From: Eledone cirrhosa | Taxonomy: Eukaryota | DNA: 64,000 nucleotides | Direction of reading: 5' to 3' | NCBI GenBank assembly: GCA_964016885.1 | Contig: OZ024743.1 | Location: 297,290,001 to 297,354,000 of the forward strand | Shown: positions 555 through 42,524 of the stretch, one piece after another | Layout: each line of letters begins with the position of its first letter | How positions within the stretch are numbered: position 1 is the stretch's first letter | Translations under genes and position numbers: made by a program | Notes under the pieces: generated by a model | Told to the model about the DNA's origin: nothing | Seen by the model: the letters and a program-made list of their open reading frames with translations, nothing else | Databases searched by the model: none

Positions 555-555
555 G

Positions 556-1194: not shown

Positions 1195-1243
<49 letters not shown>

Positions 1244-4008: not shown

Positions 4009-4189
4009 ATAAACACGAATATATGTACAGTAGGACACCATATCGGACAGCAATATAAGTAATGGGTTGGGAGTACATTCACTAAAATTAAGTGCTGCTA
4101 TTAACTGGTCAAACAGCCATATCAATATTTGTTAACTAGTTGGCTGATCCACCCACTCGTTCACCGAATAACTCTTTCATTCACTCACT

Positions 4190-18202: not shown

Positions 18203-18750
18203 TATACCATTTCAACGACCTCAGTTTGCTCAGGAAGTTCTCTGAATTTGGATACAATATTGTCTGCATACCTGGTTCTGACTTGCTTATCCACATACAC
18301 TTCCCACTTTATCCTGTAGATCACCCTGGACCTGCCAGTTTTGTGGGCTTCTTTAGCTCCAAACAAGAAATCCGAATACAGATCCTTCCTTGAAGTCACT
18401 GCAGCGTTAGATGTAGTTAAGGCTGAGTCATATATCTTGATGGGAGACTTCAATGCACATGTTGTCACTGGCCACCTGACATGGAAAGGGGTGATTCGAA
18501 GGAATCGCAAACCCGATCTAAATACGAATGGAGAGACCTTGCTAGACTTCTGTTCTAGCAATGGACTCTCTTTTATGAACACCTTCTTCCAGCACAGAGA
18601 CATCCATAAATATACATGGTTTAGGTAGACAGAGATCAATAATTGATTTTGTTATTGTCTTTGATCTCTTCGATTTTGTGCTGGATGTTCGTGTTAAGAG
18701 AGGGGCTGAGCCGTCAACTGATCACCATCTGGTTATCTGCAACTTGAGAC
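18203..18750. mobile_element. RTE APE-domain fragment with internal inversion
   Basis: Plus strand 18358-18750 reads APNKK..LMGDFNAHV..NGETLLDFC..STDHHLVICNLR. Minus strand 18357-18203 reads AKEAHKTGRSRVIYRIKWE, the direct continuation. Confidence 0.85.
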
Positions 18751-19312
18751 CCCAACCCATGCTATTTATTTTGTAGTATATGGGATTTCTTGTAAAGTTC
18801 TTTTTTTTTGTTGTCATGTATAATGTTTTTTTTATATTTAAAGAAAATTAATTATTGCAGGAATGCTTCGACTTAAAATAAAATTTCGCCAGAGATAGAT
18901 TAGCAAAATGTAATAAGCGGGGTGGTTGGAAAAAGATCGAAAAATTTATAAGCGGAAGGGGGGGGGGGGGGGGGGGGGGTATTATTCGAAGCTTTTTTAA
19001 GTGAGCAAAGGCTTAGCACGGGGACAATCCCACGCTCTGAACATCGAATGTATTTCCCCAAAAGTAGAACTGGATGCACACGAAGTGCAAGGTTTTATAT
19101 CAGAGTTACGTTCTAGAGAGATCTATTAATGAAGATTAGGCGTCTCCCGCTCAACAAAAATAAAAGAAAAAACTTTATTGGATGGTCGGGTTGTCGGCGA
19201 CTAAACCGGCAACCAGACTAGGCTTGCTTGGTGGGGTTGGTGATTTAGGACACCCTGCGGGATGAAAAACAAAACCCGTCAAAGGGTGGAGGAACTCAGG
19301 AGAGTCACCATA

Positions 19313-19835
19313 CATACATGATGGCTGCCCCCTCGTTATCGAGTATGGCCATTGCATGATATACCATTATTAATAATTATTAATTAATTCAAGGGCGGTG
19401 AATTGGCAGTATCGGTAGAGGGTCGGACGCTATGCTTTGCAGCATAGAGTTACGTCCCTTTATGAACTGAGTTCAAATCCCGCCGAGGTTAACTTTGCTT
19501 TCATCCTTACAGGGTCGATAAAATAAAGTACCAGTAATGTACTGGGTAATTGCTGGCCTTGTGCCTAAAGTAGAAACAATTAATTAATTCTATCGTGCAA
19601 TGCCTGTGCGTGAAGATATTTTTTTAAGTGATGAAAGACTGTGCACTGAGCCAATCCCACTCTCTGAGCAACAGTAGCTATAACCCGAAAAGAAAAATAG
19701 ATCAACATCATCGGTAACTACTGAGCCGCAGGTTTTATATCGGAGTTATCCTAGTTTCATGAGTTGTCTTCTCCTAGAAGAATGCCCTGACAAAGGCTAG
19801 GGGTCCTTCACTCCCAGTGGTTTAACCGCGCGGTA
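19313..19835 (-). mobile_element. Non-autonomous bipartite RTE-derived element (family Ra), interrupted by a SINE
   Basis: Minus strand has RTE 5'UTR-like GGGCATTCTTCTAGGAGAAGACAACTC...CACTTAAAA joined to the 3' end CTCGATAACGAGGGGGCAGCCATC(ATGT)n. An uninterrupted copy lies at 33455-33712. Confidence 0.7.
19391..19578 (+). mobile_element. SINE family S1
   Basis: Same sequence as 1513-1700. 12-bp TSD ATTAATTAATTC at 19379 and 19579. Confidence 0.92.
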
Positions 19836-20351
19836 CATATGTATATACATATTTACACAGTTTTGGATGGTCGTTGACTCTTCCGCCCTTTGTTAGGTTT
19901 TGTTTTTTGTCTTGCAGGGTGTCCAAAATCACCCTCCTCACCAAGTACGACAGGTTGTACTGGATTACATGTTACCAGTAGCACTCAAGAGTGACCCGAC
20001 ATACATACTTACATGCATATGTACATCATACATGATGTTGTCTACTCGATTTCGATTTTAATAACGAGTCAGCTCCCGTCGCCACTGTCCCGTCGCCATA
20101 AGACCTAAGACACAAGGTTTGTAAGCAAGAAAATATTACCAGCACTTCATTGGATTTAAGTGTCATGTGCTTGTGCAACACACATACATCCCTCTGAGTA
20201 TTTGCTATAGTAATTCAATGACAATATATAAATAAAGATGACTGGCGATAATTGCAACTGTATGTTTTATTATCTCGGTATTTGACCTTTCCGACACAGA
20301 TGCATGGATGGATAATAAAAAAAAAAGTGACATACATTCAGATATGGTAAT

Positions 20352-20545
20352 AATAATTGTTTCTACTTTTGGCACAAAGCCAGCAATTATCCAATACATT
20401 ACTGGTACTTTATTTTATCGACCCCGTAAGGATGAAAGGCAAAGTTAACTTCGGCGGGATTTGAACTCAGACCATAAAGGGCCGTAACTCTCTGCTGCAA
20501 AGCATGGCGTCAGACCCTCTACCGATACTGCCAATCCACCGCCCC
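20352..20545 (-). mobile_element. SINE family S1
   Basis: Reverse-complement copy in an AAT-rich site. Confidence 0.9.
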
Positions 20546-20554
20546 TATGAAAAT

Positions 20555-21519
20555 AATAATATCGTTAGGATAGCAATTGATCCTGAAGACGGACGGGAAG
20601 TATAAGACATTGGCAGGCTTTTCTTAACACTCGAAAAAAACAAAATGGAAATGGACTAGTTCACTGAGAAGGTTATACATAGATACTTAAAACGAAAAAT
20701 GCAGATCATAGAGAGGACAAACCATACTATAAATCTAGTACTGAGTTCATAACATCCTACTTTGAAAGATATATTCATGTAGTCCGGGAACAAGAAATCC
20801 CCAACTGTACTTACTACACGAAAGAGAAAAGTCATTAGTTAACAATAAATGTAGGCTGCGCAAAACGAATATCGAAAATGTTAGCCACATTATTGCCAAC
20901 TGTAAAAGAATGTCCTCTCGTTACTGCTTCACCATGAGGCGTGATATGGTAACCAGAGAAATTTGAAGACGAACATTAAAACAAATAGGGAGGAATATGT
21001 TGAGACTGATGGCTTAAAGGAATACTGGTGGAACCTAGAAACATAAACTGTTACCAAATTAAAACACAACTGGCTTGATATTGTTTTTGGGACCACACAT
21101 TAAAATCATGCTCTGTTGTAAGAGTCAGCCGCCCACTCGATATCAATGTAATAAGAAAAATGGAAGAGAATGAAGATCCCTACGTACTACTGATGAGGAG
21201 CCTGTAGATCAAGTTCTCAAGATACATGTTCAGCTTCATACCTATACCAAATTCAGTCATACTTTGGTTCAGGTGGGAACAACCCACCTGAACCAAAGTA
21301 TGACTGAATTTGGATTTGTGAAGAAAGAACGTAACTCTTTAATTCATAAGCTACAAATGGTCTTGATTTCTGGAACCTTCAAATTCTGTGAAACATTCTA
21401 ACGATTCAGAAGATGAATGCTTACACAAGGGTCCACGAGCATTTCCTTTTTTTTTTACAACCTTGCCACTGGGAAGTTGGCCGATTAAAAATAAACTCAA
21501 CATTAAGAGAAAGAGAAAA
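20555..21519 (+). mobile_element. Old decayed Dong/R4 family A 3' fragment
   Basis: Colinear with 23790-24752 (NKCRLRKTNIENVSHII, EYWWNL, KLKHN). 3' end ...TTAAGAGAAAGAGAAAA. Confidence 0.85.
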
Positions 21520-21910
21520 CATGATGGCTGCAAACCCGTGTTCGAGCATTGCCATCGTCTGATAAAATGCTAAAGAATGTGAGGCACGAATGTGACTCTT
21601 TAAACCAGCCAAAGACTTGCACCCTCTGGCACATATATGGCAACTGTAGGCCCCTCCGAGACTTTCCATTGTTTTGTTCTGGCTGTGTGTTCTCATGTGT
21701 CTTTTGAGACCTCCCACGCTAACACATTCCTTGCCACATTCCTTACACCTTTTCAGATCATAATCTACATGAGGTCTACTGATATGACTCTGTTCGTGTC
21801 TAGCCAAACCAGCTTTACTCAGGCAGACTCGACTACAGTGCTCGCAAACCAGATGATGTTCAACAGCAGTCAGTTCAGAACAGTCTCTTTTCCTTACCTT
21901 CCTTTTCAAC
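21520..21910 (-). mobile_element. RTE-clade 3' end encoding three C2H2 zinc fingers
   Basis: CEHCSRVCLSKAGLARHEQSH, CKECGKECVSVGGLKRHMRTH and CHICARGCKSLAGLKSHIRASH, followed by a 3' hairpin and GCAGCCATCATG. Confidence 0.7.
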
Positions 21911-22000
21911 TGGAAAGCTGGCCAGTTAAAAATAAACTCAACATTAAGAGAAAGAGAAAACATATATACATGCATGCATGCATGCATACATACATACATA

Positions 22001-22376
22001 CATGGTGGCTGCCAACTCGTTTTCGAGTACGGCCACTACTTTATATCCATGTAGGAGAACTCCTACCGATGGGCTGAACGAGTGTGACTTTTTAGTCCGG
22101 CCAGCGACTTGAAAACTCTGGTACAAACACTACACTTGTGACAATTATTGACACATAGTGCTGGGCCCATGGTACCATGTGACGACAAGTGCAGAGAGAT
22201 CTCCAGATATAAAGCAATGCCTGTACCGTGAAGCTTTTATAGTGAGCAAAGACACTGCACAAAGTCAGTCCCACTCTCTTAACCAAGATGATATTTACCA
22301 AAAAGAAGAACAAGTCAACATCATTGGATACCATCAGAGTTGCAGGTGTTATATCAGAGTTTTCATTCTCCTAGAA
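22001..22376 (-). mobile_element. Non-autonomous bipartite RTE-derived element (family Rb)
   Basis: Minus strand TTCTAGGAGAATGAAAACTCTGATATAACACC ... CTCGAAAACGAGTTGGCAGCCACC(ATGT)n. A second copy lies at 24908-25197. Confidence 0.7.
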
Positions 22377-22445
22377 TACATACATACATACATACATACA
22401 TACATACATACATACATACATACATACATACATACATACATACAT

Positions 22446-24752
22446 GTCAGAAAATGTCGAATAGGAAATCGCCAGGCCCAGACCTCATTACAGGATACTG
22501 GTTGAAGAATTTCACTTTCTATCGGCAAGATCTCATACGGCTGTTTACAGAAACCATTAAAGGCACACAAGAACTGCCCAGATGGTTATCAACTGCCACT
22601 ACTCTCCTCATTCCACAAAATAGCCAAACCACCCTTGCTAAAAATTACCGCCCAATAGCCTGCCAAAACATCATGTATAAATTATATACTGGGTGCCTTA
22701 ACCTGTTCTTACAGGATCACTGTGCTATCAAAAACATCATAACACCTGAGAAAGCTGGTGGAAAGAGGGAGGTGTGGGGTTGCATAGATCACCTACTAAC
22801 TAACAAAATGATTCAGAATCGCAGAAACATGACTGTGGTGTGGCTGGACTATCAAAAAGCATTTGATAGTGTACCTCATGGGTGGATTATTAAGGCTTTA
22901 CAGTTAGCCAAAGTCCCACAACCATTGGTAGCTGCTGTTGAACGTCTGACCAAGAACTGGTACACCAATTTGATCCTTAGAGGTGAGAAGGAACAAGTTA
23001 AGACTGATAAGATACATTACCAGAAGGGCATCTTTCAGGGTGATAGCTTGTCAGTGCTACTCTTCGTTCTCTCACTGAATCCACTATCTTACCTTCTCAG
23101 GAAACAAGGTGGACAAAGAAGTGGGTCCAGAAGTATCTGCCATCTTTTCTTTGTTGATGACCTGAAGTTGTATGGGCCAAATATTAATGACATCAAGAAA
23201 CAATTGGACCTCATTACACAATTTTCAACCGACATCAAAATGAAATTTGGTGAGTCCAAGTGTGCATATTTGGCAGTAAAACGTGGAAGAGCTGTGCCCT
23301 CCTCTAGAAATCTAGAGATGAATGGCCTGACAATACAACCTCTACAGTCAGGTGACAACTACAGATATCTTGGACAGGATGAGAATCTCAGATATGATGG
23401 ACCCATAAATAAGGAGAGAACCAGAACTGAATACCTCAGAAGAGTAAAGAAAATATGGTCATCAGAACTGTCAGCGTACAACAAATACATTGCCCACAAT
23501 ACTTATGCTGTGCCAATTCTAACGCCAACATTTGGCCTACTGAACTGGTCATTGCAAGAACTAAGTGAGATGGATGTTAGAACTCGAAAACTTCTCAGTG
23601 TTACTGGGAACTTTAACATCAATGGTGATGTGGATAGGCTATACTTCTCACGCAAGGAAGGTGGCCGGGGTCTAAAATCAATATTAACAACATATGAGAC
23701 CCGGATAGTGACACTGAAGCAACACCTTCAACAGAGGAAAAAGGTTGGCAACCATCTTGCCCAGGTTTATGACCATGAAAAAAGAAATATCATTAGAATA
23801 GCGACTGATCTGGAGGAGAGATATGGAATAAAGCCTGATATAAATCTCTCACCCAGAGAAATCGGAAGATCCTATTCAATGTTCAAACAAGATAAAAAAA
23901 TTGACCAATTTACAGAAAAAGTTGTGCATGGATACTTGAGGCGTAAAACACAGACCATAGAGGGGATAAACCACTCAAAAAGCCTGGCATGGAGTTCCGA
24001 CAAGTTTATGACATCACACCTTGAGGGATATCTCTATGCAATACAGGAACAAGAACTCCCTACCAAATATCTGCTGCACAAAAGAGGAGGGCCAGCAGCT
24101 GACAATAAATGTAGGCTATGTAAAACAAAGATCGAGGATGTAAGCCACATTGTTGCCAGCTGCGAAAGAATGTCATCTCGCTACTACCTCCCCATGAGAC
24201 ACGATGGGATAGCTAGAACCATCTGGAACGCACTTCGGAAAACAAAATTAACAGCAAACGAGGAAGAATATATTGAGACAGATGGCACTAAGGAATACTG
24301 GTGGAACCTGAAAATAAAAACTGCCACCAAATTAAAGCACAACCGGCCTGATATTGTAGTTTGGGACCACACATTCTGTTGTGGAGATCAGCTGCCCACT
24401 TGATGTAAACGTTGTCAGAAAAATACAGGAGAAGGAGGACATCTGCGGACCATTGATGAGGAGTTTACAAATCCAGTATCCAAGATACACCTTTAGCTTC
24501 ATACCTATCATTATTGGTGCTACGGGTTATATACCAACCCGCTTGGACCAAAGTATGACTGAACTTGGATTTGCGGACAAAAAGCGCAGCTCCCTAATTC
24601 ATAGTCTACAAATGGCTGTGATAGCTGGCACCTTCAAAATTTGCAAAACATTCTTGCGATTCAAGGGATGACAATTTCTTTTCTTTTACAACCTTGCCAC
24701 CAGGAAGGTGGCCGGTCAAAAAAATATACTCGAAATTAAGAGAAAGAGATAA
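22446..24752 (+). mobile_element. R4/Dong-clade RLE non-LTR retrotransposon, family A, 5'-truncated
   Basis: KSPGPD, NYRPIAC, WLDYQKAFDSVPH, GIFQGDSLS, FFVDDLKLY (RT); CRLCKTKIEDVSHIVASC knuckle; RHD; HNRPDIVVWD..EISCP (RLE). Flanked by (CATA)n on both sides. Confidence 0.93.
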
Positions 24753-24786
24753 CATACATACATACATACATACATACATACATACA

Positions 24787-24816
<30 letters not shown>

Positions 24817-24817
<1 letters not shown>

Positions 24818-24880
24818 TACAACCTTGCCACCAGGAAGGTGGCCGGTCAAAAATATACTCGAAATTAAGAGAAAGAGATA
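24817..24880 (+). mobile_element. Dong family A extreme 3'UTR fragment
   Basis: Repeat of 24686-24750 between CATA tracts. A similar stub lies at 21908-21960. Confidence 0.85.
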
Positions 24881-24907
24881 TACATACATACATACATACA
24901 TACATAC

Positions 24908-25197
24908 ATGGTGGCTGCCAACTCGTTTTCGAGTACGGCCACTACTTTATATCCATGTAGGAGAACCCCTACCGATGCGCTGAACGAGTGTGACTTTTTA
25001 GTCCAGCCAGCGACTTGAAAACTCTGGTACAAACACTACACTTGTGACAATTATTGACACATAGTGCTGGGCTCATGGTACCATGTGACGACAAGTGCAG
25101 AGAGATCTCCAGATATAAAGCAATGCCTGTGCCGTGAAGCTTTTATAGTGAGCAAAGGCACTGCACAAAGCCAGTCCCACTCTCTTAACCAAGATGA
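24908..25197 (-). mobile_element. RTE-derived element, family Rb, 5'-truncated
   Basis: Near-identical to 22001-22291. CATA tracts on both sides. Confidence 0.75.
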
Positions 25198-25249
25198 TAC
25201 ATACATACATACATACATACATACATACATACATACATACATACATACA

Positions 25250-25279
<30 letters not shown>

Positions 25280-25282
<3 letters not shown>

Positions 25283-25558
25283 GATGGCTGCAACATGACT
25301 TCGAGGAACCTGCCTATGGCCAGCAATACCACGCATCGCAAAAAATGTCATATGTCAAGCGATTCCTGTGCTGAAACTTTTTTAAGTGAGGAAAGGCTTT
25401 GCATGAGGCTATCCCACTCTCTGAACATCGAATGCATTTACCCCAAACGAAGAACAGGTCTACATCATTGGATGCAAACGAAGTCACAGGTTTTATATTA
25501 GAGCGATCTTCTAGAGATATATCTTAATGAAGACTAGGAGTGTCTTGCTCCACAAAAA
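25280..25558 (-). mobile_element. RTE-derived element, family Rc
   Basis: Ends GCAGCCATCAT and shares CCCACTCTCT and TTTTAAGTGAG motifs. A related copy lies at about 18990-19160. Confidence 0.65.
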
Positions 25559-25847
25559 TACATACATACATATATACATGAATGCATATATGTATACATG
25601 AATACATACATACATACATGATACATACATTCCATCAGTCAACGCGATCAGTCGCATATTTTGGCGTGGAAGTCTATTTATTAAATTTAAGATGAATACT
25701 ATCTCCGACAGTAATGCCACAACTACAGCCAGGTTGAATAACTGGTTATTCTTCTAACTATCCCTTCTGAAGACACCTTTTATTCGAATTCGTAGAGATA
25801 TCCGACTAAATACATAATTCATTTTACAAGGATTTGCTACAAACAGC

Positions 25848-28800
25848 ATGGCTGAACACAACATCAACAAGAAAATTAAGGAAGTATCGAAGACAAATAA
25901 CAAAGAAGGTAATCAAACTTTATTCAGTTGTAGCTACAGAAGAAACCGAAATTATAAATCGCATTTCTCTTGGAGTTGCGAACTTAATAATGATTTATTT
26001 AATTGTTATAAAATGGCAAAAAACAATCCCTCCATTGGCTATATGAATAGAATGAAGCTACACTGGGACGAAATGCACCCACAGCTAAATTATTTCACAG
26101 CGAAACAATTACGCCAACAAGCGACGTTTGTTGAACGTAAAAATAAGATAAATATTATTAATTGTAAGTCCCCCACAACAAACATGGAATCAACAACACG
26201 TGCTACAGATCGCCATGCTACTAGACTTCCGAGCAGCCACGTCGAACAGCGCCTTGAAACAACTATGCCTGTACCATCTAAGTCTACCTCGAATGCTGGG
26301 GAAAACACTATCGATAATAATAATAATAATAATAATCGAATAAATGTGACACCACGTATACCATCCGAGTCTACCTCGACTGTTGTGGAAAATACTATCG
26401 ATAATTGTTTCTACTTTAGGCACAAGGCCAGCAATTACTAAGTGCATTACTGGTACTTTATTTTATCGACCCCGTAAGGATGAAAGGCAAAGTCAACCTC
26501 GGCGGGATTTGAACTCAGATCGTAAAGAGACGTAACTATGCTGGAAAACATGGCATCCGACCCTCTACCGATACTCCCAAACCACTCGATAATGATAATC
26601 AAAAGTATAAACAATTGAAAATTTCCCTCAACGAAATCTTCCAGAGAGAAATTAACTCATGTATAAATATCTCTCTGGCTGAACGTGTTAAAATGACAAT
26701 GGTGAATAAAAAACCAAATAATGAAATACTACGTGTTATTGACGAAATAGGGGATGAATATTTACGACGGATAAAAACCCCAACATTTTGGCAAATCAAC
26801 GCCTGTTTATATGCCTTAGCAATGACAGTGAAGCATTATCTTGGTGATAGCAGAGATATTAACAAGAACGAAACACCACCAAAAATACCATCATATATAA
26901 CTAAAATAGAAAAAAAGAGTGCTGACCTACGAAAAAACATAGGATATGTGACAATGCTCCTTACATGCAAACAAACACAAAAAAACCTCACTCCTCACCA
27001 ACAAAGAGTGAAAAATAAAATAGAGACGATGTTTGGTAACAGTAGAAACAGAACTCTCCAATATAAGCTGATCACACTCAAACAAGAATTGAGAGCTGTT
27101 AGCGAAACACGCCGATACCTGAAGAAGGTAGATGAGAGAAAAATGCTTAATAAAAGATTCAGACGAAACCAAACATCAGTCTATAGAGATATGAAGGGCA
27201 AAATAATAAGTGTCACTGAGGCCCCATCCCAGAAAGACATAGATTCCTTTTGGAGAAAAATATGGGGTGAAAAGAAGAATTTCAACCAAGATGCAGTGTG
27301 GCTAAGAGAAATCCGAAACAACTATTGTTCCTACACTACAACAAAAACATACGAAATAAGTGAGGGTACCCTTGAGACTGTGATAGGAAAACTCCAAGAT
27401 AAGAAAACACCAGGAAGAGACATGATTGTCGGCTACTGGTACAAAAAACTAATATTCTATCGGAGGTATCTTACTGACCTCTACCAACAAGTTCTTAAGG
27501 GAGATACACTTATACCAGAATGGTTGACATTAGCACAAACGTTACTGGTCCCCAAGAACAAAGACACCCACTTGGCAAAAAACTACCGACCCATTGCATG
27601 CCAGAACCTGATGTATAAGATGTATACAACCTGCCACAACCTATTCCTCCAAGATCACTGTGAAAATAATAACATCATCACAGATGAACAAGCAGCTGGA
27701 AAGAAAAGGGTTTGGGGATGTGCTGAACAACTCCTAATCAACAAAACTGCGATGTCGGAGGTGCAACAACTTAGGAGGAATATGACTTCAGTCTGGCTGG
27801 ACTACAAGAAAGCTTTCGATTCTGTTCCCCACTCTTGTATGATAGAGGCCCTCGAACTTGCTAAAGTCCCAGACATTATTGTCAGAGCCATAGAGAGGCT
27901 GTCTTCTTCTTGGGCTACTATCCTAAGGTTAAAGACAGAGAGGGAGGACTCTATTTTCACTGATAAAATAAAATATTGCAGGGGTATATTTCAGGGGACA
28001 GTCTCTCTGTGATATTGTTCATCTTGTCATTAAACCCCTTGTCCTTTCTGCTCAAGAAATGTGAGGGATACATCATTGGCTCACAGGAGGACAGAAATAC
28101 GAACCTAACTCATAACTTCTTTGTGGACGATCTGAAACTCTATGCCAAGAACATAGATGGGATGAAGAAAAATCTTGACCTGGTTACAACGTTCTCAAAG
28201 GATATAGGAATGGAGTTTGGCCAAGATAAATGCTCATACATGACTGTAAAGCGGGGGAAAACAACAACCCAATCTAGCAACATTGTCATCAATGGTCTAA
28301 CTGTTTCACCGATATCTGATGAGGACTGCTACAGATACCGGGGGATAGATGAGAACATATCCTATAATGGTATCTGTAATAAAGAACGCGTAACCAGGGA
28401 ATACTACACCCGATTAAGAAAGATCTGGTCATCGGAACTCTCTGCGCAAAACAAAACAGTGGCTCACAATGTGTTTGCTGTGCCTGTCCTAACACCAACG
28501 TTTGGAATACTCAATTGAACGATAGACGAAATCCGAGAAGTTGATGTTGGAACTAGAAAAATACTGAACAACACCGGAAACTTCCATATCAACAGTGACA
28601 TAGACCGCCTTTACTTGAAACGTAAGCAGGGAGGCAGAGGCCTAACATCAGTCCAGACAACATTTGAATGTCGCATCATATCTCTCCGACAACATCTACG
28701 AACCTCGAAGCGTAGGAGCCCGCTTCTCGAGCAAGTCTATCTGCATGAAACAGATAAGATCATGAGAGTTGGGAAGGAACTCCGTGAGAGATATTCCCTG

Positions 28801-29688
28801 TGTGATAATCAAAAACTCACACCCAGGGATGTCGCTCAGCAGTATCGCAGTGAATCCATTGTTGAAAAACTGCATGTCTATCAGCAAAAAATCATGCAAG
28901 GATATGTTGACATGAAGCTCCAGAATGATAGTAATATAGCTAAGGAAAGTAGACTATCTTGGACCAACAACCGCTATATTGGCTGCCACTTTGAAAGATA
29001 TGCTTTTGCAATCCAAGAACAGGAGATTAGCACGAAATACCTGATTCACAAAAGAGATAAGGATGCAGGAAAAACACCTAGATGTGATAACAAGTGCAGA
29101 CTCTGCAGAACTAACATCGAGGATATCACCCATGTCATCAGCAGCTGTCCAAAGATGTCATCGCGGTACTATCTACCTATGAGGCATGATGTAGTGGCCA
29201 AAACACTGTACAATGCAGTTCGTAAAAAAGATAGCCCCGATAATAAACACATTAAAAGCTACAACAATGTGGAAGACATCCATGTACATAATATGAAAGA
29301 GTACTGGTGGAATGTTCCAGTAAAAACCCCAATAAAATGCAGGCATAACAGACCAGATATTATGATATGGGACAGGGAGAAGAAAACATGCACAGTAGTG
29401 GAAATTAGCTGCCCAGCAGATGCCAATATAATATCAAAGATTAGTGAAAAGGAGAATATTTATGCAGAACTGATGAGAAATCTGCAGATACTCCACCCTG
29501 ATTACACCTTCAGATTTATGCCTGTGATTATTGGGGCACTGGGATATGTTAGTAACTGCCTCAATACAAATCTTGAGAAGCTAGGCTTCACAGGAACAGA
29601 AAGAACACAACTAGTTAGGAAATTACAAGTACAATCCATTAATGGAACAGTAAAAATATGTAAAACATTCCAAAAATGTTGCATCTAA
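25848..29688 (+). pseudogene. Dong-B RT/RLE polyprotein, about 1217 aa reconstructed
   Basis: Three lesions: SINE insertion 26406-26593, a 1-nt deletion near 27997 in QGDSLS, and TGG>TGA at 28516. The paralog near 34053 has TGG. Confidence 0.88.
26406..26585 (-). mobile_element. SINE family S1 inserted in the Dong-B ORF
   Basis: TSD TCGATAAT at 26398-26405 and 26586-26593. Confidence 0.92.
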
Positions 29689-29991
29689 TAACTGCATATA
29701 CACATGTACAGATACTAAGCATATACACATGCACACATACAACTCAAAACATACACATCCGCACATACAATAACATCCATATCTACACATGCATGCATGC
29801 ATACATAATCTACCTACTTGATGTTGTGTAAATTCCAATGAGAGAGTCTTGTGTCTATGTTAGAAACCGACTCTCTCTCAATTGGTAAAACTTTGTGAAA
29901 TTATAAAACCAGAAGAACATACATACATGCATACATACATACATACATACATACATACATACATACATACATACATACATACATACATACA

Positions 29992-31381
29992 GACAGGATG
30001 AGAATGTCAGATATGATGGACCCATAAATAAGGAGAGAACCAGAACTGAATACCTCAGAAGAGTAAAGAAAATATGGTCATCAGAACTGTCAGCATACAA
30101 CAAATACATTGCCCACAATACTTATGCTGTGCTAATTCTAACGCCAACATTTGGCCTACTGAACTGGTCATTGCAAGAACTAAGTGAGATGGATGTTAGA
30201 ACTCGAAAACTTCTCAGTGTTACTGGGAACTTTAACATCAATGGTGATGTGGATAGGCTATACTTCTCACGCAAGGAAGGTGGCCGGGGTCTAAAATCAA
30301 TATTAACAACATATGAGACTCGGATAGTAACACTGAAGCAACACCTTCAACAGAGGAAAAAGGTTGGCAACCATCTTGCCCAGGTTTATGAGCATGAAAA
30401 AAAAATATCATTAGAATAGCGACTGATCTGGAGGAGAGATATGGAATAAAGCCTGATATAAATCTCTCACCCAGAGAAATCGGAAGATCCTATTCAATGT
30501 TCAAACAAGATAAAAAAATTGACCAATTTACAGAAAAAGTTGTGCATGGATACTTGAAACGCAAAACACAGACCATAGAGGGGATAAACCACTCAAAAAG
30601 CCTGGCATGGAGTTCCGACAAGTTTATGACATCACACCTTGAGGGATATCTCTATGCAATACAGGGACAAGAACTCCCTGCCAAATATCTGCTGCACAAA
30701 AGAGGAGGGCTAGCAGCTGACAATAAATGTAGGCTATGTAAAACAAAGATCGAGGATGTAAGCCACATTGTTGCCAGCTGCGAAAGAATGTCATCTCGCT
30801 ACTACCTCCCCATGAGACACGATGGGATAGCTAGAACCATCTGGAGCGCACTTCGGAAAACGCACTTCGGAAAACAAAATTAACAACAAACGAGGAAGAA
30901 TATATTGAGACAGATGGCACTAAGGAATACTGGTGGAACCTGAAAATAAAAATTGACACCAAATTAAAGCACAACCGGCCTGATATTGTAGTTTGGGACC
31001 ACACATTCTGTTGTGGAGATCAGCTGCCCACTTGATGTAAACGTTGTCAGAAAAATACAGGAGGAGGACATCTACGGACCATTGATGAGGAGTTTACAAA
31101 TCCAGTATCCAAGATACACCTTTAGCTTCATACCCATCATTATTGGTGCTACGGGTTATATACCAACCCGCTTGGACCAAAGTATGACTGAACTTGGATT
31201 TGCGGACAAAAAGCGCAGCTCCCTAATTCATAGTCTGCAAATGGCTACGATAGCTGGCACCTTCAAAATTTGCAAAACATTCTTGCGATTCAAGGGATGA
31301 CAATTTCTTTTCTCTTACAACCTTGCCACCAGGAAGGTGGCCGGTCAAAAAAATATACTCGAAATTAAGAGAAAGAGAAAA
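29992..31381 (+). mobile_element. Dong family A, second 5'-truncated copy
   Basis: Near-identical to 23373-24752. CATA tracts on both sides. Confidence 0.93.
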
Positions 31382-31444
31382 CATACATACATACATACAT
31401 ACATACATACATACATACATACATACATACATACATACATACAT

Positions 31445-32555
31445 TGTCCTTTATGCTTAGGAAATATGAAGGATATGTAATTAATTAACAGGAGGCTGGA
31501 AACATTAATCTAACACATAGCTTCTTTGTGGATGACTTGAAACATTATGCCAAGAATATGAGTGGTATGAAGAAAAACCTTGACCTGGTTACGACGTTCT
31601 CGAAAGATATAGGAATGGAGTTTGGTCAGGATAAAGGTCATATATTATTGTAAAGTGAGGAAAAACTACAAGCCAATCTAGCAACATCTCTATCAATGGC
31701 CTGACTGTTTCGCCAGTATGTAACGAAGATTGCCACAGATACTTGGGGATAGTTGAAATAAAATCTAATGATGGAACGAATAACCAGGAAATATAACAAT
31801 AATAATGGTTTCTTATATAGGCACCACAAGGCCAGCAATTTGGGAGGAGGGGAAAGTCGATTAAATCGACACCAGTGTATGACTGGTAATTTATTTTACC
31901 GACCCCGTAAGGATGAAAGGCAAAGTTAACCTCGGCGGGATTTCAACTTAAATCATAAAGGGCCGTAACTCTATGCTGCAAAGCATGGTGTCTGATCCTC
32001 TACCGATACTGCCAATAATAATAAGAAAATATATGATCTTCTGAAGTCTCTATGCACAATAAATCAGTAGCCCACAATGTGTTTGCTGTATTTGTGCTAA
32101 CACCAACATTTGGACTACTTAACTGGACGCTAGTTGTGATCTGAACCATTGATATTAAAACCAGAAAAGTTCTAACTGGCAACGGAAATTTCCACATCAA
32201 CAGTGACATTAACCGCATCTACCTGAAAGGTAAATAGGGAGGTAGTGGTTTAACAAACAGCATTCGAGCGTCACATTATATCCCTCCGACATCTACGAAC
32301 CACCAAGCGTTGAAGGACATCTATAGAACATCTTTGTCTACATGAGGCAGACAACACCATAATAATTGGGAAGGAGCTCCATGAGAAATACCTTTTGTAT
32401 GATAACCAAAAACTCACACCCAGGGAAATTACCGCAATGAATCCACGGAGGAAAGCTGCATGCTTATCAGCAAAAAAGAAAAAAAGAAAAATGGCTTTGT
32501 TGCCAAAGTGAAAGTGAGGTAGAGAAGCAAAATGGTTTATCTTGGACCAACAATC
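31445..32555 (+). mobile_element. Decayed Dong family B-like fragment, interrupted by a SINE (about 31805-32015, -)
   Basis: FFVDDLKHYAKNMSGMKKNLDLVTTFSKDIGMEFG and GNFHINSDINRIY. Confidence 0.85.
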
Positions 32556-32579
32556 ACATACGGACATACATACATACCT

Positions 32580-32905
32580 AACTGGCACTCCGTCGGTTAC
32601 AACGACGAGTGTTCCAATTGATCCGATCAACAGAACAGCCTGCTCGTGAAATTAACGTGCAAATGGCTGAACATTCCACAGGCACGCGTATCTTTAACGT
32701 AGTTCTCTGGTGGATTCAATGTGACACAGAACGTGACAAGGCTGGCCCTTCGAATTAAAGGTACAACTCATTTTTGCCGGCTGAGTGGACTGGAGCAACA
32801 TAGAATAAAGTGTCTTGCTCAAAGACAGAACGCGCCGCCGGGACTCGAACTCACGACCTTACAGTTGTGAGCCGAATACCTTAACCACAACGTGACGCGC
32901 CTTCA
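32580..32905 (-). mobile_element. tRNA-derived CORE-type SINE
   Basis: Minus strand has A-box GTGGTTAAGG, B-box GAGTTCGAGTCC, GAGCAAGACACTTTAT core, and a tail ending GACGGAGTGCCA. Confidence 0.85.
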
Positions 32906-33102
32906 CACACACATACATACATACATACATACATGCATACATACATACATACATACATGATGGCTGCCCCCTCGTTATCGAGTATGGCCATTGCACGAAG
33001 AGAAAGAAAAAAAAAATAATAATAATAAATAAATAAATAAAAATAAAAAATAAAAAATAAAAAGAAATATATATATATATATATATATACATATACATAC
33101 AC

Positions 33103-33147
<45 letters not shown>

Positions 33148-33248
33148 TACATTAATAACAATAATAATAATAATAATAATAATAACAATAACAACAATAA
33201 TAATATACATATACATATATATATACACACACACGCACACACATAAGC

Positions 33249-33280
<32 letters not shown>

Positions 33281-33454
33281 GATAGCAACTAACAGCGCTG
33301 CGATCGAATGTGGCTTTTTAGCCCAGCCAATGATCTAAAATGTCTTGCACAGAGTCAGCAACCAAAACATTCACTGGGAATAGTCGGCTGTGGTTGGAGT
33401 TCGTGTACTTTTGCATACATACATACATACATACATATATATATACATTCATTA

Positions 33455-33712
33455 TAATGGCTGCCCCCTCGTTATCGAGTATGACCATTGCACGATATAA
33501 TATTATTAATAATTATCAATTAATGCTATCGTGCAATGCCTGTGCGTGAAGATTCTTTTTAAAGTGAGGAAAGACTGTGAACTGAGCCAATCACACTCTC
33601 TGAGCGACAGTAGCTATAACCCGAAAAGAAGAAAAAGATCAACATCATCGGTAACTACTGAGCCGCAGGTTTTATGTCGGAGTTATCCCAGTTTCCCGAG
33701 TTGCCTTCTCCT
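33455..33712 (-). mobile_element. RTE-derived element family Ra (no SINE); 3' stub also at 32957-32998
   Basis: Colinear with 19321-19775 minus the SINE. Confidence 0.75.
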
Positions 33713-33726
33713 ACATACATACATAC

Positions 33727-35452
33727 GTGGTTACAACATTCTTAAAAGATATAGGAATGGAGTTTGGCCAAGATAAATGCTCATATATGACTGTAAAGCG
33801 GGGAAAAACAACAACCCAATCTAGCAACATTGTCATCAATGGCCTAACTGTTTCTCCGATATCTGATGAGGACTGCTACAGATACCGGGGGATAGATGAG
33901 AATATATCCTATAATGGTATCTGTAATGAACGCGTAATCAGGGAATACTACACCCGATTAAGAAAGATTTGGTCATCGGAACTCTCAGCGCAAAACAAAA
34001 CAGTGGCTCACAATGTGTTTGCTGTGCCTGTCCAACGTTTGGAATACTCAATTGGACGATAGACGAAATCCGAGCAGTTGATGTTAGAACTCGAAAAATA
34101 CTAAACAACACCGGAAACTTCCACATCAACAGTGACATAGACCGCCTTTTCATAAAACGTAAGCAGGGAGGGAGAGGCCTAACATCAGTCCAGGCAACAT
34201 TTGAATGTCGCATCTTATCCCTCCGACAACATCTACGAACCTCGAAGCGTAGGACCCCGTCTCTCGAGCAAGTCTATCTGCGTGAAACGGATAAGATCAC
34301 GAGAGTTGGGAAGGAACTCCTTGAAAGATATTCCCTGTGTGATAATCAAAAACTCACACCCAGGGATGTCGCTCAACAGTATCGCAGTGAATCCATGGTT
34401 GAAAAACTGCATGCTTATCAGCAAAAAATCATGCATGGATATATTGCCAGGAAGCTCCAGAGTGAGAGTAATATAGCTAAGGAAAGTAGTCTATCTTGGA
34501 CCAACAACCGCTATATATTTCTCCCACTTTGAAGGATACGCTTTTGCAATCCAAGAACAGGAAAATAACACGAAATACCTGATTCACAAAAGAGATAGGG
34601 ATGCAGGAAAAACACCTAGATGTGATAACAAGTGCAGACTCTGCAGAATTAACATCGAAGATGTCACCCATGTCATCAGCAGCTGTCCAAAGATGTCATC
34701 GTGGTACTATCTACCCATGAGGCATGATGTAGTGGCCAAAACACTGTACAATGCAATCCGTAGAAAAGATAACCTCGATAATAAACACATTAAAAGCTAC
34801 AGCAATGTGGAAGACATACGCATACATAATATGAAAGAGTACTGGTGGAATGTTCCAGTAAAAACCCCAATGAAATGTAGGCATAACAGACCAGATATTA
34901 TATGGGACAGGGAGAAGAAAGCATGCACAGTAGTGGAAATTAGCTGCCCAGCAGATGCCAATATAATATCAAAGATTAGTGAAAAGGAGAATATTTATGC
35001 AGAACGGATGAGAAATTTGTAGATACTGCACCCTGATTACACTTTCAGATTTATGCCTGTGATTATTGGGGCACTGGGATATGTTAGTAACTGCCTCAAT
35101 ACAAATCTTGAGAAGCTAGGCTTCACAGGAACAGAAAGAACACAACTAGTTAGGAAATTACAAGTACAATCCATTAATGGAACAGTAAAAATATGTAAAA
35201 CATTCCAAAAATTTTGCATCTAATAACTGCATATACACATGTACAGATACAAAGCATATACACAGGCACACATACAACTCAAAACATACACATCCACACA
35301 TACAATAACATCCATATCTACACATGCATGCATGCATACATAATCTACCTAGTTGATGTTGTGTACATTCCAATGAGAGAGTCTTGTGTCTATGTTAGAA
35401 ACCGACTCTCCCTCTATTGGGAAAAATTTGTGAAAATATAAAACCAGAAGAA
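33727..35452 (+). mobile_element. Dong family B, 5'-truncated copy
   Basis: Colinear with 28181-29917, with several frameshifts. Preceded by TACATACATACATAC. Confidence 0.92.
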
Positions 35453-35861
35453 CTACGATTTAACGGATACATTTTAGGAAGCTGTTTAAAGTTGTGTTAA
35501 TAGACTGAAGGCAGAAATATGTAAACGGATGAGTAGTAGCAGCAAATATTTCATTAATAATCAAAGAACTGTTTAGATTTTAGCCCCCCCCCTCCCTCTT
35601 CTCTAGAATTTCGATAAAATAGGTCTTTGTAAAGCAAATGTAAAAATGTAACATCCTCGTTTACTCGCGTTTTCATCCGATGTCACTACAATCATACACT
35701 ACCAGCCTCCATTCACACATACATATACATACACACATGAATACAGAGACACACGCAACAGTAAAATATGTATGGTTAATAGCCATGAGCAATCACATGT
35801 GTCATTGAACGATATGCACGCACGCACACACTCACAAACACATTCACACACACATGTGTGC

Positions 35862-35967
<106 letters not shown>

Positions 35968-36123
35968 TGTAATCAGCATCCAAACGAGAAGGCCATTATG
36001 GCTCCCAAAGTCATACACTGAGAGCATTGAACTTTACGAATTAGCTGCACATGAAAGAGATGTTTGAAAGTTCATTCAGTACAAAGGGGCTACTAAGTGT
36101 GCAACTACAAGTAATACTACCAT

Positions 36124-38060
36124 TTCTTCTTCTTCTTCTTCTTCTTCTTCTTCTTCTTCTTCTTCTTCTTCTTCTTCTTCTTCTTCTTCTTCTTCTACGC
36201 CCACTTATACTTGAAAAAGTCATGGGGGTGAGTCCTCAACGACTCCTTCCAGCGTGTCCTGTCAGAAGCAACCATCTCTACATTGAATGGTTCATCGATT
36301 CCACACTCCTGCAGAACCTTCCACAACAGGTCCCTGGAACGCGGTTGTGTGCCTTTTCGAGGTCTATGAAAGAAGTATACAACTCTTGGCAATATTCACA
36401 CGATTTTTCGAAAATCCGCCGCAGTTTGAATATTTGGCCGGCTATGCTGCGCCCGGGGCTAACAACACACTATTAAACAACTAGCTTGGACTAATATCCC
36501 TCTAGCTCTTTTCCAGACTTTACTGAGGAGGCTTAACAAGGAGATCTCTCTATAATTGGAACAATATATCTTCTCTCTCGTCTCTATTTAAGGTTATTTA
36601 CATTTCGGGACGAATTTCATTCTCCCTGGCGGCCTTGCTACATTTCAGATCTTTAATTGTTCTTGTGACCTCAGCCTGCAAGAGGTTAGTCATCGCTCCC
36701 AGATGCACCTCATGTACAGCAGAAGATGCTGTTGTATCTGGGTTTAGGAGATCAGAAATGTATTCTTTCTACCTCGCATGGATGCAGCTCTCTGAACAGA
36801 AGAGAACCTCAGACGCGTTCCTGATAGCACATGTGGAGGACTTCTTATTACGATGTCGGTGGATGGTCAGCCAGAACACTGTATTTGTTGATCGCAACTT
36901 TGATTTCAGCTTAACGCCACAGTCCTTCCATGTTTTAAATTTGGGCACCTTTGCTATCTCTGCTGCGACTTTCGCGCCTGCCTGTACCACAAGTGCAAAG
37001 AGGAGGACTCATTTCCACGCCAAGCTTTGTAACACTCCTTCTTTGCTCAGAGGACATCTTTGACCACTTGATTGAACCAAGTGGTCCTCTTGCCACTCGT
37101 CACACATCAAGCCTCTTTCACCCGCAGTATTTAACAGCTAAGGCAGAAACTGCCGAGCTGAACACCCTCCACTCCGTTTAAACAACCTCAATTCGCTCAG
37201 GAAGTTCTCTGAATTTGGATGAAATAATATCAGCATACCTGGTTTTAACTTCTTTATCCGCCAGCGCTTCCCACTTTATCCTGTAGGTCGAGTTGGACCT
37301 GCCACTTTTCGGGGCTCTCTTGGCTTTAGGTTGTCTCAAGTTGCAGATAACTAGATGGTGATCAGTTGACAGTTCAGCTCTCTTAACACGAACACTTAGC
37401 ACAGAATCGAAGATATCAGATACAATAACAAAATCTATTATTGATCTCTGTCTCTGATTCCCCTTATGCCATGTGTATTTATGGACGTCTTTGTGCTGGA
37501 AGAAGATATTCATAATAGAGAGTCTATTATTAGAACAGAAGTCTGATAAGGACTCTCCATTCGTATTAAGATCGGGATCGCTGTTGCTTCCAATCTCTCC
37601 TTTCCGTATCAGGTCGTTAGTACCAATGTGAGCATTGCAGTCTCTCATTAGAATATATAGCTAAGTTATAACTACATCTAAGACTGCAGTGACTTCACCA
37701 AGAAAGGATCTATATTCGGACTCTCTTTTTGGCGCATAAACTTCTACCTTCCACAGTCACCTATCTTTCAGCCTATGCTTCAAAAAGTAAATCTTCCCTC
37801 AAAATAGGATCCAGTCCATAACACATTCTGACAGACGGGGATTGGGAGTATCCCCACTCCCGTCTATGCACCCATTTCTGTCTCCACACCTGAATAGTGG
37901 GGTTTCCATCTTTCATCCATGTCTACAGTACCTGAACTACGGAACTCTGTTGAGGAACCCCTGACTATATCTAGCTAGTAAAATGGGGCCTCTTCCACTA
38001 GTTCCTGCTCCTTAACTGTTGTGATGTTCTCCGTTCAAATAGTTACAATTTGCTCCCTAC
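36124..38060 (-). mobile_element. Internally deleted RTE-clade LINE with (GAA)n tail
   Basis: APE (RDCNAHIG, NGESLSDFC, SIIDFVIV, STDHHLVIC), then RT start (DLLWKVLQECGI) fused directly to the C-terminus (ASDRTRWKESL..YKWA*), then (AGA)n at 36124-36196. Confidence 0.85.
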
Positions 38061-38966
38061 CGAACCCCATTTGGGGTATCAGGATATGTAATCTTTGTGT
38101 ATCCATCCCACGCCTCCCAGGATAGGTCGCATGTCCATCGCTAGTTCTTGCAGCATGAGATGGAGACTGAAATATATTTTTCGAACAGGCCCCTCTACCA
38201 AAGGCCTGAAGGCGTCTTTTGTTAATCCGCGCAAAGGACGACGCAAAATGATTGCTGTTATTGCCTCTAGTTATATTGCAGTTTCGGTAGTCTCATTTGC
38301 ACCAGTCACCAATTCTGTACTTATCTCAGACCCGCGAAGACTAGGCATTCTTAGCGGCGGCATTTACTCGCATCTTCGTAGCTACATCACTTAGTTGTGA
38401 GAGGTTTCTTGGGAGCTATCAGTATCACCCATTGCTCCATCTCCCTAGTAGTTTATCATTGTTGGTCTGGGTTTGCTTATTCATCTGGCTGGAGCCCGCT
38501 TATACTGAAACTAACCATCACATCTAGTGGCCATACTCTACTGAGAATACAAGTAACGCGACCACTTCATTTTCCTGGAATAATAGCTGAGGGAGTGAAA
38601 AGGTATAAAGAAGTTCGTCATCTATCTAAATCAAAGCATACAAACCTGAATTTATCAATCCTACTCTAATCACAAGGTCATGCGCTCTCATGTTATAGGA
38701 AGTTAAGTTATTTGATGAACTTTATTTATCTGTCAGAATTAACTGAAACAAGAGGAAAAGCGTTTTAAAATGATTTTATTTTCCGTTTTATATGTTATCA
38801 ACGAATACGTTGTCTTCAACAATTTTAAAACAACATATCCTGATCCGTAAAGTTCGAAAAGTTATCAAAAGACGTTATATTTTAACCTTTCGTACTTGAC
38901 ATAAAACTGCTTTTCTTTGAAATCTTGATCCGTTTAGCTCTTTATCGAAACCGGGGTCGAAACTGA

Positions 38967-41839: not shown

Positions 41840-42336
41840 GACAGCTAAAAAAAATGTTACAGAAAATTGAAGTCATAGCCGCAGCACAAAGATTGAAAAT
41901 AAAATGAAATGTGCCTTAGTCGAGCAATGAAAACACACCTCTGATCCTCGGTAGGCAGCAATCTATGTCACGTTGACCAGATGTCCAGGCTGTTTTGAAA
42001 ACCAGTCCGCTTCTATTGGCACACTGCACCACATACTGCATGTCGGAGTGAGCAACATAGTCGGCGGCTTCGGAAGGCTCGGGGCCTGGAGAGCCATGGA
42101 GATTGCTCGTGAATATCTGACTGCTCAGCCACCCTACAACATTTTGCATTTTGAGCGCTTTCGCCCCATCCACTAAGGAGAGAAAACAAGTTTGTTCCGC
42201 CTTGCAAACATTTTCTCGGAGGCCATGCCTACCTTCCATATACCAGCTCAAGCAGCGCTAACCTGAGGCTTTACAACAACTACTGATCTACGAGCTGTCA
42301 ACAAACAACCTCCGCTGGTCATTTCATCTCTTATTT

Positions 42337-42524
42337 AATAATTGTTTCTACTTTTGGCACAAGGCCAGCAATTATCCCAGTGCATTACTGGTACTTTATT
42401 TTATCGACCCCGTAAAGATGAAAGGCAAAGTTAACCTCGGGGGGATTGGAACTCAGAACGAAAAAGGGCCATAACTCTATACTGCAAAGTATGGCGACCG
42501 ACCCTCTACCGATACTGCCAATCC
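42337..42524 (-). mobile_element. SINE family S1, slightly 5'-truncated
   Basis: Reverse-complement copy with TTAATAAT on both sides. More decayed copies lie at about 39710-39790 and 40640-40790. Confidence 0.88.

Follow-up and report, generated by a model that had tools for sequence, protein, structure and literature searches.

The window, the whole 64,000-nucleotide stretch of Eledone cirrhosa DNA analysed here, contains a nest of six independent R4/Dong-type insertions, every one on the strand that reads CATA, with a reverse transcriptase (RT), a CCHC knuckle, a restriction-like endonuclease (RLE) motif and a predicted Myb-like N-terminus. The Dong-like copies and fragments (D1 to D8), their RTE-type partner elements (X1 to X6) and the CATA tracts are arranged as follows, carets here and below marking junctions.

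20339 to 21519, plus strand: D1, decayed, 5′-truncated Dong-like copy of family C, 70% to family A, with a SINE at 20351-20545
21521 to 21912, minus strand: X1, 3′-terminal part of an RTE-type LINE with three C2H2 fingers and terminal GCAGCCATCATG
21909 to 21963, plus strand: D2, 55-bp piece that repeats the 3′ end of D1 plus CAT, 51/55 identical
21961 to 22001, plus strand: degenerate CATA/CATG tract forming the 3′ flank of D1/D2 and the X2 tail
22002 to 22375, minus strand: X2, non-autonomous RTE-derived piece with the last zinc finger, 3′ UTR and a common upstream block
22376 to 22445, plus strand: (CATA)17.5 tract, 5′ flank of D3
22446 to 24752, plus strand: D3, 5′-truncated family A copy with RVT_1, zf-RVT, RLE region and one frameshift
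24753 to 24816, plus strand: (CATA)16 tract
24817 to 24879, plus strand: D4, 63-bp piece that repeats the 3′ end of D3, with an off-register junction
24880 to 24907, plus strand: (ATAC)7 tract, X3 tail
24908 to 25196, minus strand: X3, shorter X2 copy, 92% identical
25197 to 25280, plus strand: (ATAC)20.8 tract, X4 tail
25281 to 25557, minus strand: X4, RTE-tailed non-autonomous element
25558 to 25630, plus strand: degenerate CATA tract flanking D5 on its 5′ side
25631 to 29917, plus strand: D5, near full-length family B copy with RT, CCHC and RLE, frameshifts and one stop; predicted Myb-like N-terminus at 25914-26168, and a later inserted SINE at 26401-26585
29918 to 29991, plus strand: CATA tract between D5 and D6
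29992 to 31381, plus strand: D6, 5′-truncated family A copy, 97% to D3, with 5′ phase CATACA^
31382 to 31444, plus strand: (CATA)16 tract between D6 and D7
31445 to 32555, plus strand: D7, older copy resembling family B, 70-78% to D5, 3′ end lost, with a SINE at about 31872-32016
32957 to 32998, minus strand: X5, 42-bp RTE-type 3′ end with a (TGTA)n tail at 32907-32956
33454 to 33712, minus strand: X6, RTE-tailed non-autonomous element with an internal hairpin
33727 to 35452, plus strand: D8, 5′-truncated family B copy, 94% to D5, in a 15-nt CATA tract, with 3′ flank C-TAC

The repeat is strikingly one-stranded: CATACATACATA has 93 matches, all on the plus strand, against 0.06 expected, and tracts of at least three units number 17 in the first 43.6 kb of the window and none on the minus strand. 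Many of these tracts are the (TGTA)n 3′ tails of minus-strand RTE-type elements, a source that the initial annotation had overlooked. X1, whose terminus with (TGTA)n is common to the other partner pieces, is 46% identical over 96 amino acid residues to the C-terminus of the RT protein P0220 (RVT_1, with C-terminal fingers), which we take from its motifs to be RTE-BovB-type; no APE domain was seen for the partner elements. X1 meets D1 through a 3-4 nt overlap of CAT/ACAT. The microsatellite tails of the partners, which end on the minus strand, and their overlap of a few bases with the target resemble those described for RTE-clade LINEs and bipartite RTE derivatives (PMC6007223, PMC5786205); unlike in RTE-clade LINEs, the (TGTA)n tail would here offer an RLE element of unrelated origin a place to land.

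The Dong-like copies themselves were called RLE-type, R4/Dong-like and flanked by CATA, unlike TAA-flanked Dong, and this is borne out by their domains, by a profile match and by CATA on both flanks. Specifically, i) D3 matches RVT_1 (E 9e-23) and zf-RVT in Pfam, a search in which no endonuclease/phosphatase (APE) domain was found in the elements; ii) D5 aligns to residues 6 to 1148 of P0003, and full-length relatives of 1142-1220 residues are 40-60% identical; iii) the CCHC knuckle reads C-X2-C-X8-H-X4-C and the RLE motif RPD...VEISCP...K...K..Y; iv) among PDB sequences, R2 proteins match best, over profile positions 384-1154 (E 2.5e-54); and v) the profile matches a Pediculus-type Dong-like group end to end, over 1115 columns and including the N-terminus, the nearest named proteins being insect Dong-like ORFs (Pediculus P0041, 35%). 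The N-terminal domain is predicted to form three helices (pLDDT 85), and many Myb/SANT chains are among the top VIA matches of the model (Z 4.6-6.8), the best of which (Z 6.8, rmsd 2.4, 68 residues aligned) lies below the threshold of 8; Foldseek gave no match to the model at E 0.001. This predicted three-helix Myb-like domain and the RLE motif are preserved across 23-26 proteins of the subclade described below. No HDV-like ribozyme was among the 40 Rfam matches in 19000-36000, although the Rfam models may miss it, and the relatives L001 and L003 gave 0 Rfam matches; the matches in 19000-36000 were all microsatellite-driven miRNA models under the gathering score. Nor were relatives of the elements found in scans of viral contigs and prokaryote genomes. 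Reads placed on D5 from 4 of the 13 listed runs include SINE-free forms with the joint 26397-26586 in 3 of the 4, and summed read depth in these four climbs toward the 3′ end of D5; among the 24 loose-end read rows listed on D5 there is no Dong junction, 23 falling within the SINE or at its border.

The letters originally given for five 3′ junctions are all correct (GAGAAAA^CATG after 21519, GAGAAAA^CATA after 21960 and 31381, GAGATAA^CATA after 24752, and AGAAGAA^CATA after 29917), but the five do not represent independent events. Because 21909-21963 repeats 21468-21522 beyond the RTE 3′ fragment, 21519 and 21960 likely mark a single insertion, and counting them as two was rejected on parsimony. 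D2 is likely to be a target-site duplication produced by X1, to judge from the repeated sequence; CATA is absent on the 5′ side of the D2 piece. Two observations count against this reading: the implied 55-bp duplication far exceeds the 7-15 bp described as typical of RTE (PMC6007223), and mismatches between D1 and D2 are concentrated in the first 20 nt. D4, absent from the initial annotation, has the off-register junction GAGATA^TACAT and is likely a local duplication, since it carries the T of the 24752 copy and not the A of the 31381 copy. Neither D2 nor D4 has a regular junction, and both require the duplication reading. The copy ending at 35452 had been set aside as an exception without CATA downstream; its junction, AGAAGAA^CTAC, is instead CATAC minus one base, its 5′ side ends in TACATAC, and if one base was lost, the D8 duplication is 3-5 nt. 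Copies of a family share their 3′ phase, which is the same in D1/D2, D3, and D6 and in D5 and D8, with p about 0.016 when the 35452 copy is included and 0.06 without it, every window junction deriving from the one nest. The junctions in the window are without variable poly(A), and none lies in TAA. AATAAA-like words occur 16-36 nt upstream of the junctions, the exact word in D1 only; we do not count them as evidence.

At the 5′ side, TACAT directly precedes 22446 (D3) and 31445 (D7), and TACATAC directly precedes 33727 (D8), where 2 nt of microhomology are possible; 29992 (D6) is preceded by TACATACA, and the D1 5′ end, after GTGACATACAT, is tentative. The proposal that each 5′ truncation point follows TACAT or TACATAC therefore holds for 22446, 31445, and 33727, but is off by one at 25632, where TACAT ends at 25630, and 25632 is in any case likely to be the true 5′ end of the near full-length D5 rather than a truncation. 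Each of the five well-defined 5′ ends lies at a CATA tract; since tracts occupy only 523 of the 4183 nt (12.5%) of non-Dong DNA in 19300-35600, p is about 3e-5, for events that may be dependent at this one locus. The repeat is present on both flanks of D3, D5, D6, D8 (with one base lost), and tentatively D1, as well as at the outside locus L001. A shared 5′ phase finds no support: 4/5 ends fit CAT^, for which p=0.27 if phases are uniform. What survives of the fixed insertion register is thus the constant 3′ phase within families, while the 5′ phases vary.

The families of the nest fall in a long-branch subclade separate from TAA-flanked Dong-like elements (support 1.0 in FastTree, SH-aLRT 100 in a quick tree), on a branch of 0.6-0.65 substitutions per site that sets them apart from every TAA-flanked locus sampled; the subclade is separate from the insect Dong-like ORFs too, in trees with no named R4, Dong, Rex6, NeSL, HERO, or R2 among the tips, and the RTE outgroup in FastTree, at branch 3.9, is too distant for reliable rooting. 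Among metagenome relatives in the subclade, L001 has an intact ORF of 1148 residues (326-3772) flanked at either end by (CTTA)n (junction ATACC^CTTA), L003 ends in (CTTA)n (AAAAG^CTTA), and L002 ends AAA^CATACATA, with two units only, so that 2/3 relatives having a 3′ end finish in (CTTA)n. A census of 80 loci, from which 40 without a C-terminus and 3 with <60 nt beyond the C-terminus were excluded, found at least four units of C(A/T)TA at 2/3 subclade loci and 1/34 outside (p=0.013, for a motif picked after viewing these loci), and TAA at the 3′ end of 0/3 subclade loci and 19/34 outside (p=0.11, not significant alone). L001, L002, L003, and L006 are similarly named records and may be non-independent hosts. 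With two relatives ending in CTTA runs, the branch has likely switched to four-letter targets.

The association of these elements with CATA is real, and our preferred account, which we hold to be somewhat better than an even choice, is that they form a distinct R4/Dong-type branch inserting into one-strand (CATA)n, in which the protein recognises C(A/T)TA and annealing of a CAUA tail on the RNA sets the 3′ junction. RTE-type LINEs and their derivatives would seed CATA tracts through their tails; copies likely sit in (CATA)n because the Myb-like domain and RLE recognise C(A/T)TA repeats; the Dong-like protein would nick the (TATG)n strand and prime reverse transcription there; CAUA units at the RNA end would anneal to the nicked strand and so give a constant 3′ junction, rather than one fixed cut doing so; a second nick a few bases away could leave the 3-5 nt duplications seen at the two copies where they are readable; and the tract would remain on both sides of every insertion, so that the nest grows.

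The initial annotation had proposed cleavage at TA^CATA; on this reading the endonuclease nicks one fixed bond of the repeat (given here in top-strand terms), and that cut by itself determines the 3′ junction, as R2 does. The identical 3′ phase within families agrees with this, as do L001 and L003, which likewise start at C, but an annealed RNA tail yields the same junction, which consequently cannot locate the nick, and the variable 5′ phases argue against fixed cutting; moreover, because the elements end in A, A^CATA and ^ACATA are indistinguishable. Pairing between the RNA 3′ end and target DNA is described for the I factor, R1Bm, and R2Ol, and in the same part of that source R2Bm is said to prime without such pairing (PMC6007223), which speaks for a fixed nick; we nevertheless regard it as unlikely. 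Less probable still is that no sequence-specific nuclease is involved and that a (CAUA)n tail pairs at breaks in the (TATG)n strand, much as tail-guided site choice has been proposed for RTE microsatellite tails (PMC6007223): the RTE-type pieces here are similar, 4/7 having a CATA tract on the 5′ side, but the Myb-like domain and RLE motif are maintained in the subclade proteins, R4-clade members are described as mostly target-specific (PMC4640811), and the D8 tract is just 15 nt. Very improbable is that CATA is an element-encoded tail only, with passive pile-up and local duplication in a repeat-rich nest beside a satellite array producing the 5′ association, as the single locus, the likely duplications D2 and D4, and the position of D6 and D7 after the preceding copy's tract might suggest, since the 5′ tracts of D3, D5, and D8 adjoin 5′ ends of RTE pieces and so did not originate as tails of Dong copies, both flanks of L001 carry the repeat although that record is unrelated, and the D8 3′ tract is nearly absent.

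Like Dong of Bombyx mori, DongAg, DongBg, and Darwinula Dong1/2 of the R4 clade, the elements combine a single ORF, a predicted N-terminal Myb-like region, RT, CCHC, and RLE with a microsatellite target and 5′-truncated copies; for the clade, a SANT/Myb-like domain that lacks zinc fingers is described at the N-terminus (PMC7998251). The differences are the target, which for the Dong elements of insects, mollusks, and cnidarians is given as (TAA)n (PMC7998251, PMC3812793), against (CATA)n here and (CTTA)n in relatives, and the HDV-like ribozyme of Dong and R4 (PMC3774820), for which Rfam found no counterpart here. WaldoAg1, WaldoAg2, and WaldoFs1 of the R1 clade are described as targeting ACAY microsatellites, (ACAT)n included (PMC3812793), with an APE-type nuclease where the nest elements have a C-terminal RLE motif, so that the same target is reached by a different enzyme class. 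RLE elements described as targeting microsatellites also include Togen, which is NeSL-related and uses TG repeats, and certain HERO families (PMC4640811); these belong to other clades and use other repeats, and neither is among the tree sequences. In Octopus vulgaris, Dong-R4 and RTE are reported to be abundant and recently active, with 5 Dong-R4 families and 1129 insertions (PMC13282606), and a Dong consensus is reported from O. bimaculoides (PMC9115989); the main text of the former contains no instance of the word "target", and the latter none of "target site". Our literature search, whose coverage stopped short of Repbase entries and Kojima and Fujiwara 2004, found no CATA- or CTTA-targeting R4/Dong element.

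We wish to emphasize that microsatellite targeting is well known, and that Waldo elements insert into this repeat as well; the elements are therefore a variant and not a new type of system. A broader scenario, which we put forward tentatively and rate as somewhat short of probable, is that a widespread and deeply diverging sister lineage of Dong moved from TAA to C(A/T)TA with a conserved 3′ register, using in this genome landing pads provided by unrelated RTE (TGTA)n tails; TAA, CTTA, and CATA would then form a natural series, with target switching explained by one compact Myb-like domain. Members of one branch that use CATA here and CTTA in a different host are matched natural variants for how RLE retrotransposons change target, and bear on whether protein or RNA tail determines the site, with L001 offering an intact ORF and a known flank; as R2-type proteins are under development for gene insertion, new specificities would be practically useful. 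In the nest itself, one class of retroelement probably builds the target of another.

When the first 44 kb of the window are aligned with themselves and translated, eight Dong-like (R4/Dong-type) pieces emerge, all on the plus strand, in a nest spanning 20339-35452:

20339-21519, plus strand: D1, decayed copy of Dong-like family C
21909-21963, plus strand: D2, short piece (D2 and D4, 52-63 bp)
22446-24752, plus strand: D3, family A, 97% identical to D6
24817-24879, plus strand: D4, short piece
25631-29917, plus strand: D5, family B, 94% identical to D8
29992-31381, plus strand: D6, family A
31445-32555, plus strand: D7, older B-like copy
33727-35452, plus strand: D8, family B

D5 is near full length, covering residues 6-1148 of a 1151-aa relative, and contains a later SINE; joints that lack the SINE occur in 3 of 4 read runs. 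Of the differences listed for these runs, G>A and C>T are the most frequent, a pattern that CpG decay across many copies would produce. Pfam finds RVT_1 and zf-RVT domains in the Dong-like copies, a CCHC knuckle and an RLE motif were read in the sequence, and R2 proteins are the best solved-structure relatives. The N-terminal 85 residues of D5 are predicted to form three helices (pLDDT 85), and many Myb/SANT chains are among the best structure matches of this model, though at Z 6.8 or less. The interior of D1 holds a near-perfect 67-bp hairpin, an inverted duplication (21247-21313). An abundant SINE family of ~190 bp (1497-1707, 19373-19587, 20351-20545, 26401-26585, 31872-32016, and 42335-42524) has three copies inside Dong-like copies, at AAT-rich spots, and in reads its tail end is flanked by ATA repeats.

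A search with D3 returned 26 proteins at about 550-916 bits; the next matches begin at 407 bits, with Dong-like ORFs of insects (for example Pediculus P0041). Families A and B join 24 of the 26 proteins on a long branch (SH-aLRT 100 in a quick tree; support 1.0 and branch 0.6 in a second analysis), and this subclade can be aligned with the insect Dong-like group end to end, N-terminus included. The remaining two of the 26, P0021 and P0025, scored high through length only and fall outside the subclade. Placement of the window elements in the R4 clade is likely, in trees that hold no named reference elements.

Many CATA tracts of the nest are the tails of minus-strand RTE-type pieces, seven of which have the common terminus GCAGCCA(C/T)(C/T)AT:

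19318, minus strand: shared-terminus piece
21521, minus strand: shared-terminus piece (X1)
22002, minus strand: shared-terminus piece
24908, minus strand: shared-terminus piece
25281, minus strand: shared-terminus piece
32957, minus strand: shared-terminus piece (X5)
33454, minus strand: shared-terminus piece

In all but X1 the terminus leads into (TGTA)n, intact or degraded; 3 of the 7 contain RTE-type zinc-finger coding sequence, 4 have a tract at the 5′ side too, and most have a non-coding block in common further upstream, which would suit bipartite RTE derivatives (PMC5786205). Since these tails, read on the plus strand, are the CATA tracts, nest polarity is strict: CATA in the Dong-like sense, TATG in the RTE sense. 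Several other elements lie nearby: a second RTE-type zinc-finger 3′ end (33281-33417, minus strand) with a CA/TG rather than TGTA tail; a minus-strand SINE (32577-32907 and 618-874) flanked by CATA-rich tracts, tRNA-like in origin by our reading, which may have the TATG tail as well; pieces of an RTE-like LINE family in which an endonuclease-like frame can be read (36124-38100, 7428-8453, and 18207-18750), one copy of the family ending near 36197 in (GAA)24; and, directly after X5, AAGAGAAAGAAAAAA (32999-33060), similar to the family A/C 3′ terminus, which may be a Dong-like remnant or chance. A minisatellite of 1.5 kb, its periods 28 and 80 bp, occupies 4169-5694. From 43607 to the window's end at 64000, 8 kb from the nest, a 34-bp unit that includes TTAGG is repeated about 600 times in tandem (93% matches).

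Three observations bear on whether CATA is target or tail: i) all five well-defined 5′ ends (D3, D5, D6, D7, and D8) adjoin CATA tracts, which account for 523 of the nest's 4183 non-element bases (p about 3e-5, if events are independent), and the D1 5′ end, preceded by GTGACATACAT, is tentatively compatible; ii) the tracts ahead of D3, D5, and D8 come after the 5′ ends of RTE-type pieces, and therefore are not Dong tails; and iii) 17/17 tracts and 93/93 motif matches lie on the plus strand. The association beyond 3′ ends proposed in the initial annotation therefore holds on both flanks in the window, at this single locus.

The five 3′ junctions quoted there read as given, but do not represent five events: those at 21519 and 21960 probably derive from one insertion, D2 being a duplicate of the D1 end made when X1 inserted. 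X1, which lies between them, is the 3′ terminal part of an element on the minus strand; Pfam finds three C2H2 fingers in it, and over 96 aa it shows 46% identity with the C-terminal end of RT protein P0220. Homology extends as far as 21912, and on the far side D2 matches 21468-21522 at 51 of its 55 positions. A single RTE insertion with a 55-bp duplication would explain together why D1 has no tract after it, X1 no tail, and D2 no CATA before it. Nematode RTE-1 makes duplications much longer than 7-15 bp. Most RTE duplications fall within that range, which counts against the 55-bp reading (PMC6007223). D4, absent from the earlier list, has an off-register junction and carries T as in D3 where D6 has A, and is therefore likely a local duplication. 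The supposed exception at 35452 proves to be AGAAGAA|CTAC, a CATAC flank minus one base, and its 5′ side ends in TACATAC; if one base was lost from the 3′ flank, the D8 duplication is 3-5 nt.

A fixed insertion register at both ends is not supported: the 3′ junction is constant within families (p about 0.016 with D8, 0.06 without), and no variable poly(A) was seen at the window's Dong-like 3′ junctions, but the 5′ phase is CAT| in D3 and D5, CA| in D6, and ambiguous through microhomology in D7 and D8 (4 of 5 in common phase, p=0.27). A constant 3′ junction fits a fixed nick and annealing of CAUA-ended RNA to the nicked strand equally well, so that TA|CATA cleavage stays a hypothesis. The cleavage model exactly as first proposed, with a fixed nick alone setting the junction, is rather unlikely. 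Pairing of RNA with target is known for I factor, R1Bm, and R2Ol, while R2Bm does without it (PMC6007223); tail pairing with no specific nuclease, to be set beside the RLE motif of these elements, seems less probable still.

Among 80 metagenome loci with Dong-like relatives, four belong to the subclade (L001, L002, L003, and L006). L001, grouped with D3 and D5 (support 1.0), has an intact 1148-aa ORF, (CTTA)n on either side, and the 3′ junction ATACC|CTTA; in L003 the junction is AAAAG|CTTA, leading into a long tract, in L002 it is AAA|CATACATA, and L006 lacks an end. Excluding 43 loci of both groups without a usable end, C(A/T)TA tracts of at least 4 units occur in 2 of 3 subclade and 1 of 34 outside loci (p=0.013, for a motif defined post hoc and small n), whereas at least 4 AAT units within 1.2 kb occur in 0 of 3 and 19 of 34 (p=0.11). 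The distance from stop codon to tract is about 1.05 kb in CTTA-flanked L001 (3772-4822) and L003 (3594-4651), versus 80-230 bp in the window's families. At some outside loci the terminal repeat is not TAA but (ACA)n, (AT)n, poly(A), or (CT)n (L031, 3284-3468; L015, 2590; L020; L022, 3189), and target variation beyond TAA, CTTA, and CATA is possible among them.

We observe directly which domains the elements encode, what flanks them, their polarity, and their branch. The most likely scheme, taken as a whole somewhat more probable than not, is that i) the Myb-like and RLE domains would recognize C(A/T)TA repeats; ii) the protein would nick the (TATG)n strand; iii) terminal CAUA units of the RNA would pair with the freed end, setting the 3′ junction; iv) a second nick a few bases off would leave the 3-5 nt duplication; and v) RTE tails would continually supply fresh tracts. 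Passive pile-up is highly improbable; targeting of some kind is, on present evidence, very probable.

Microsatellite targets are known in other RLE clades (PMC4640811), and Waldo, of the R1 clade, targets ACAY repeats (PMC3812793). Octopus Dong-R4 families are recorded in main texts that carry no target data (PMC13282606, PMC9115989). Literature searches brought up no R4/Dong element that targets CATA or CTTA; earlier annotation in Repbase or Kojima and Fujiwara 2004 is possible, and the Octopus repeat libraries and Utopia supplement S6 may be relevant here too. Dong and R4 carry an HDV-like ribozyme (PMC3774820). The reported target of Dong is (TAA)n, with hosts among insects, mollusks, and cnidarians (PMC7998251, PMC3812793), whereas the window elements are flanked by CATA. 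We conclude that they work like Dong but differ from it in not sitting in TAA.
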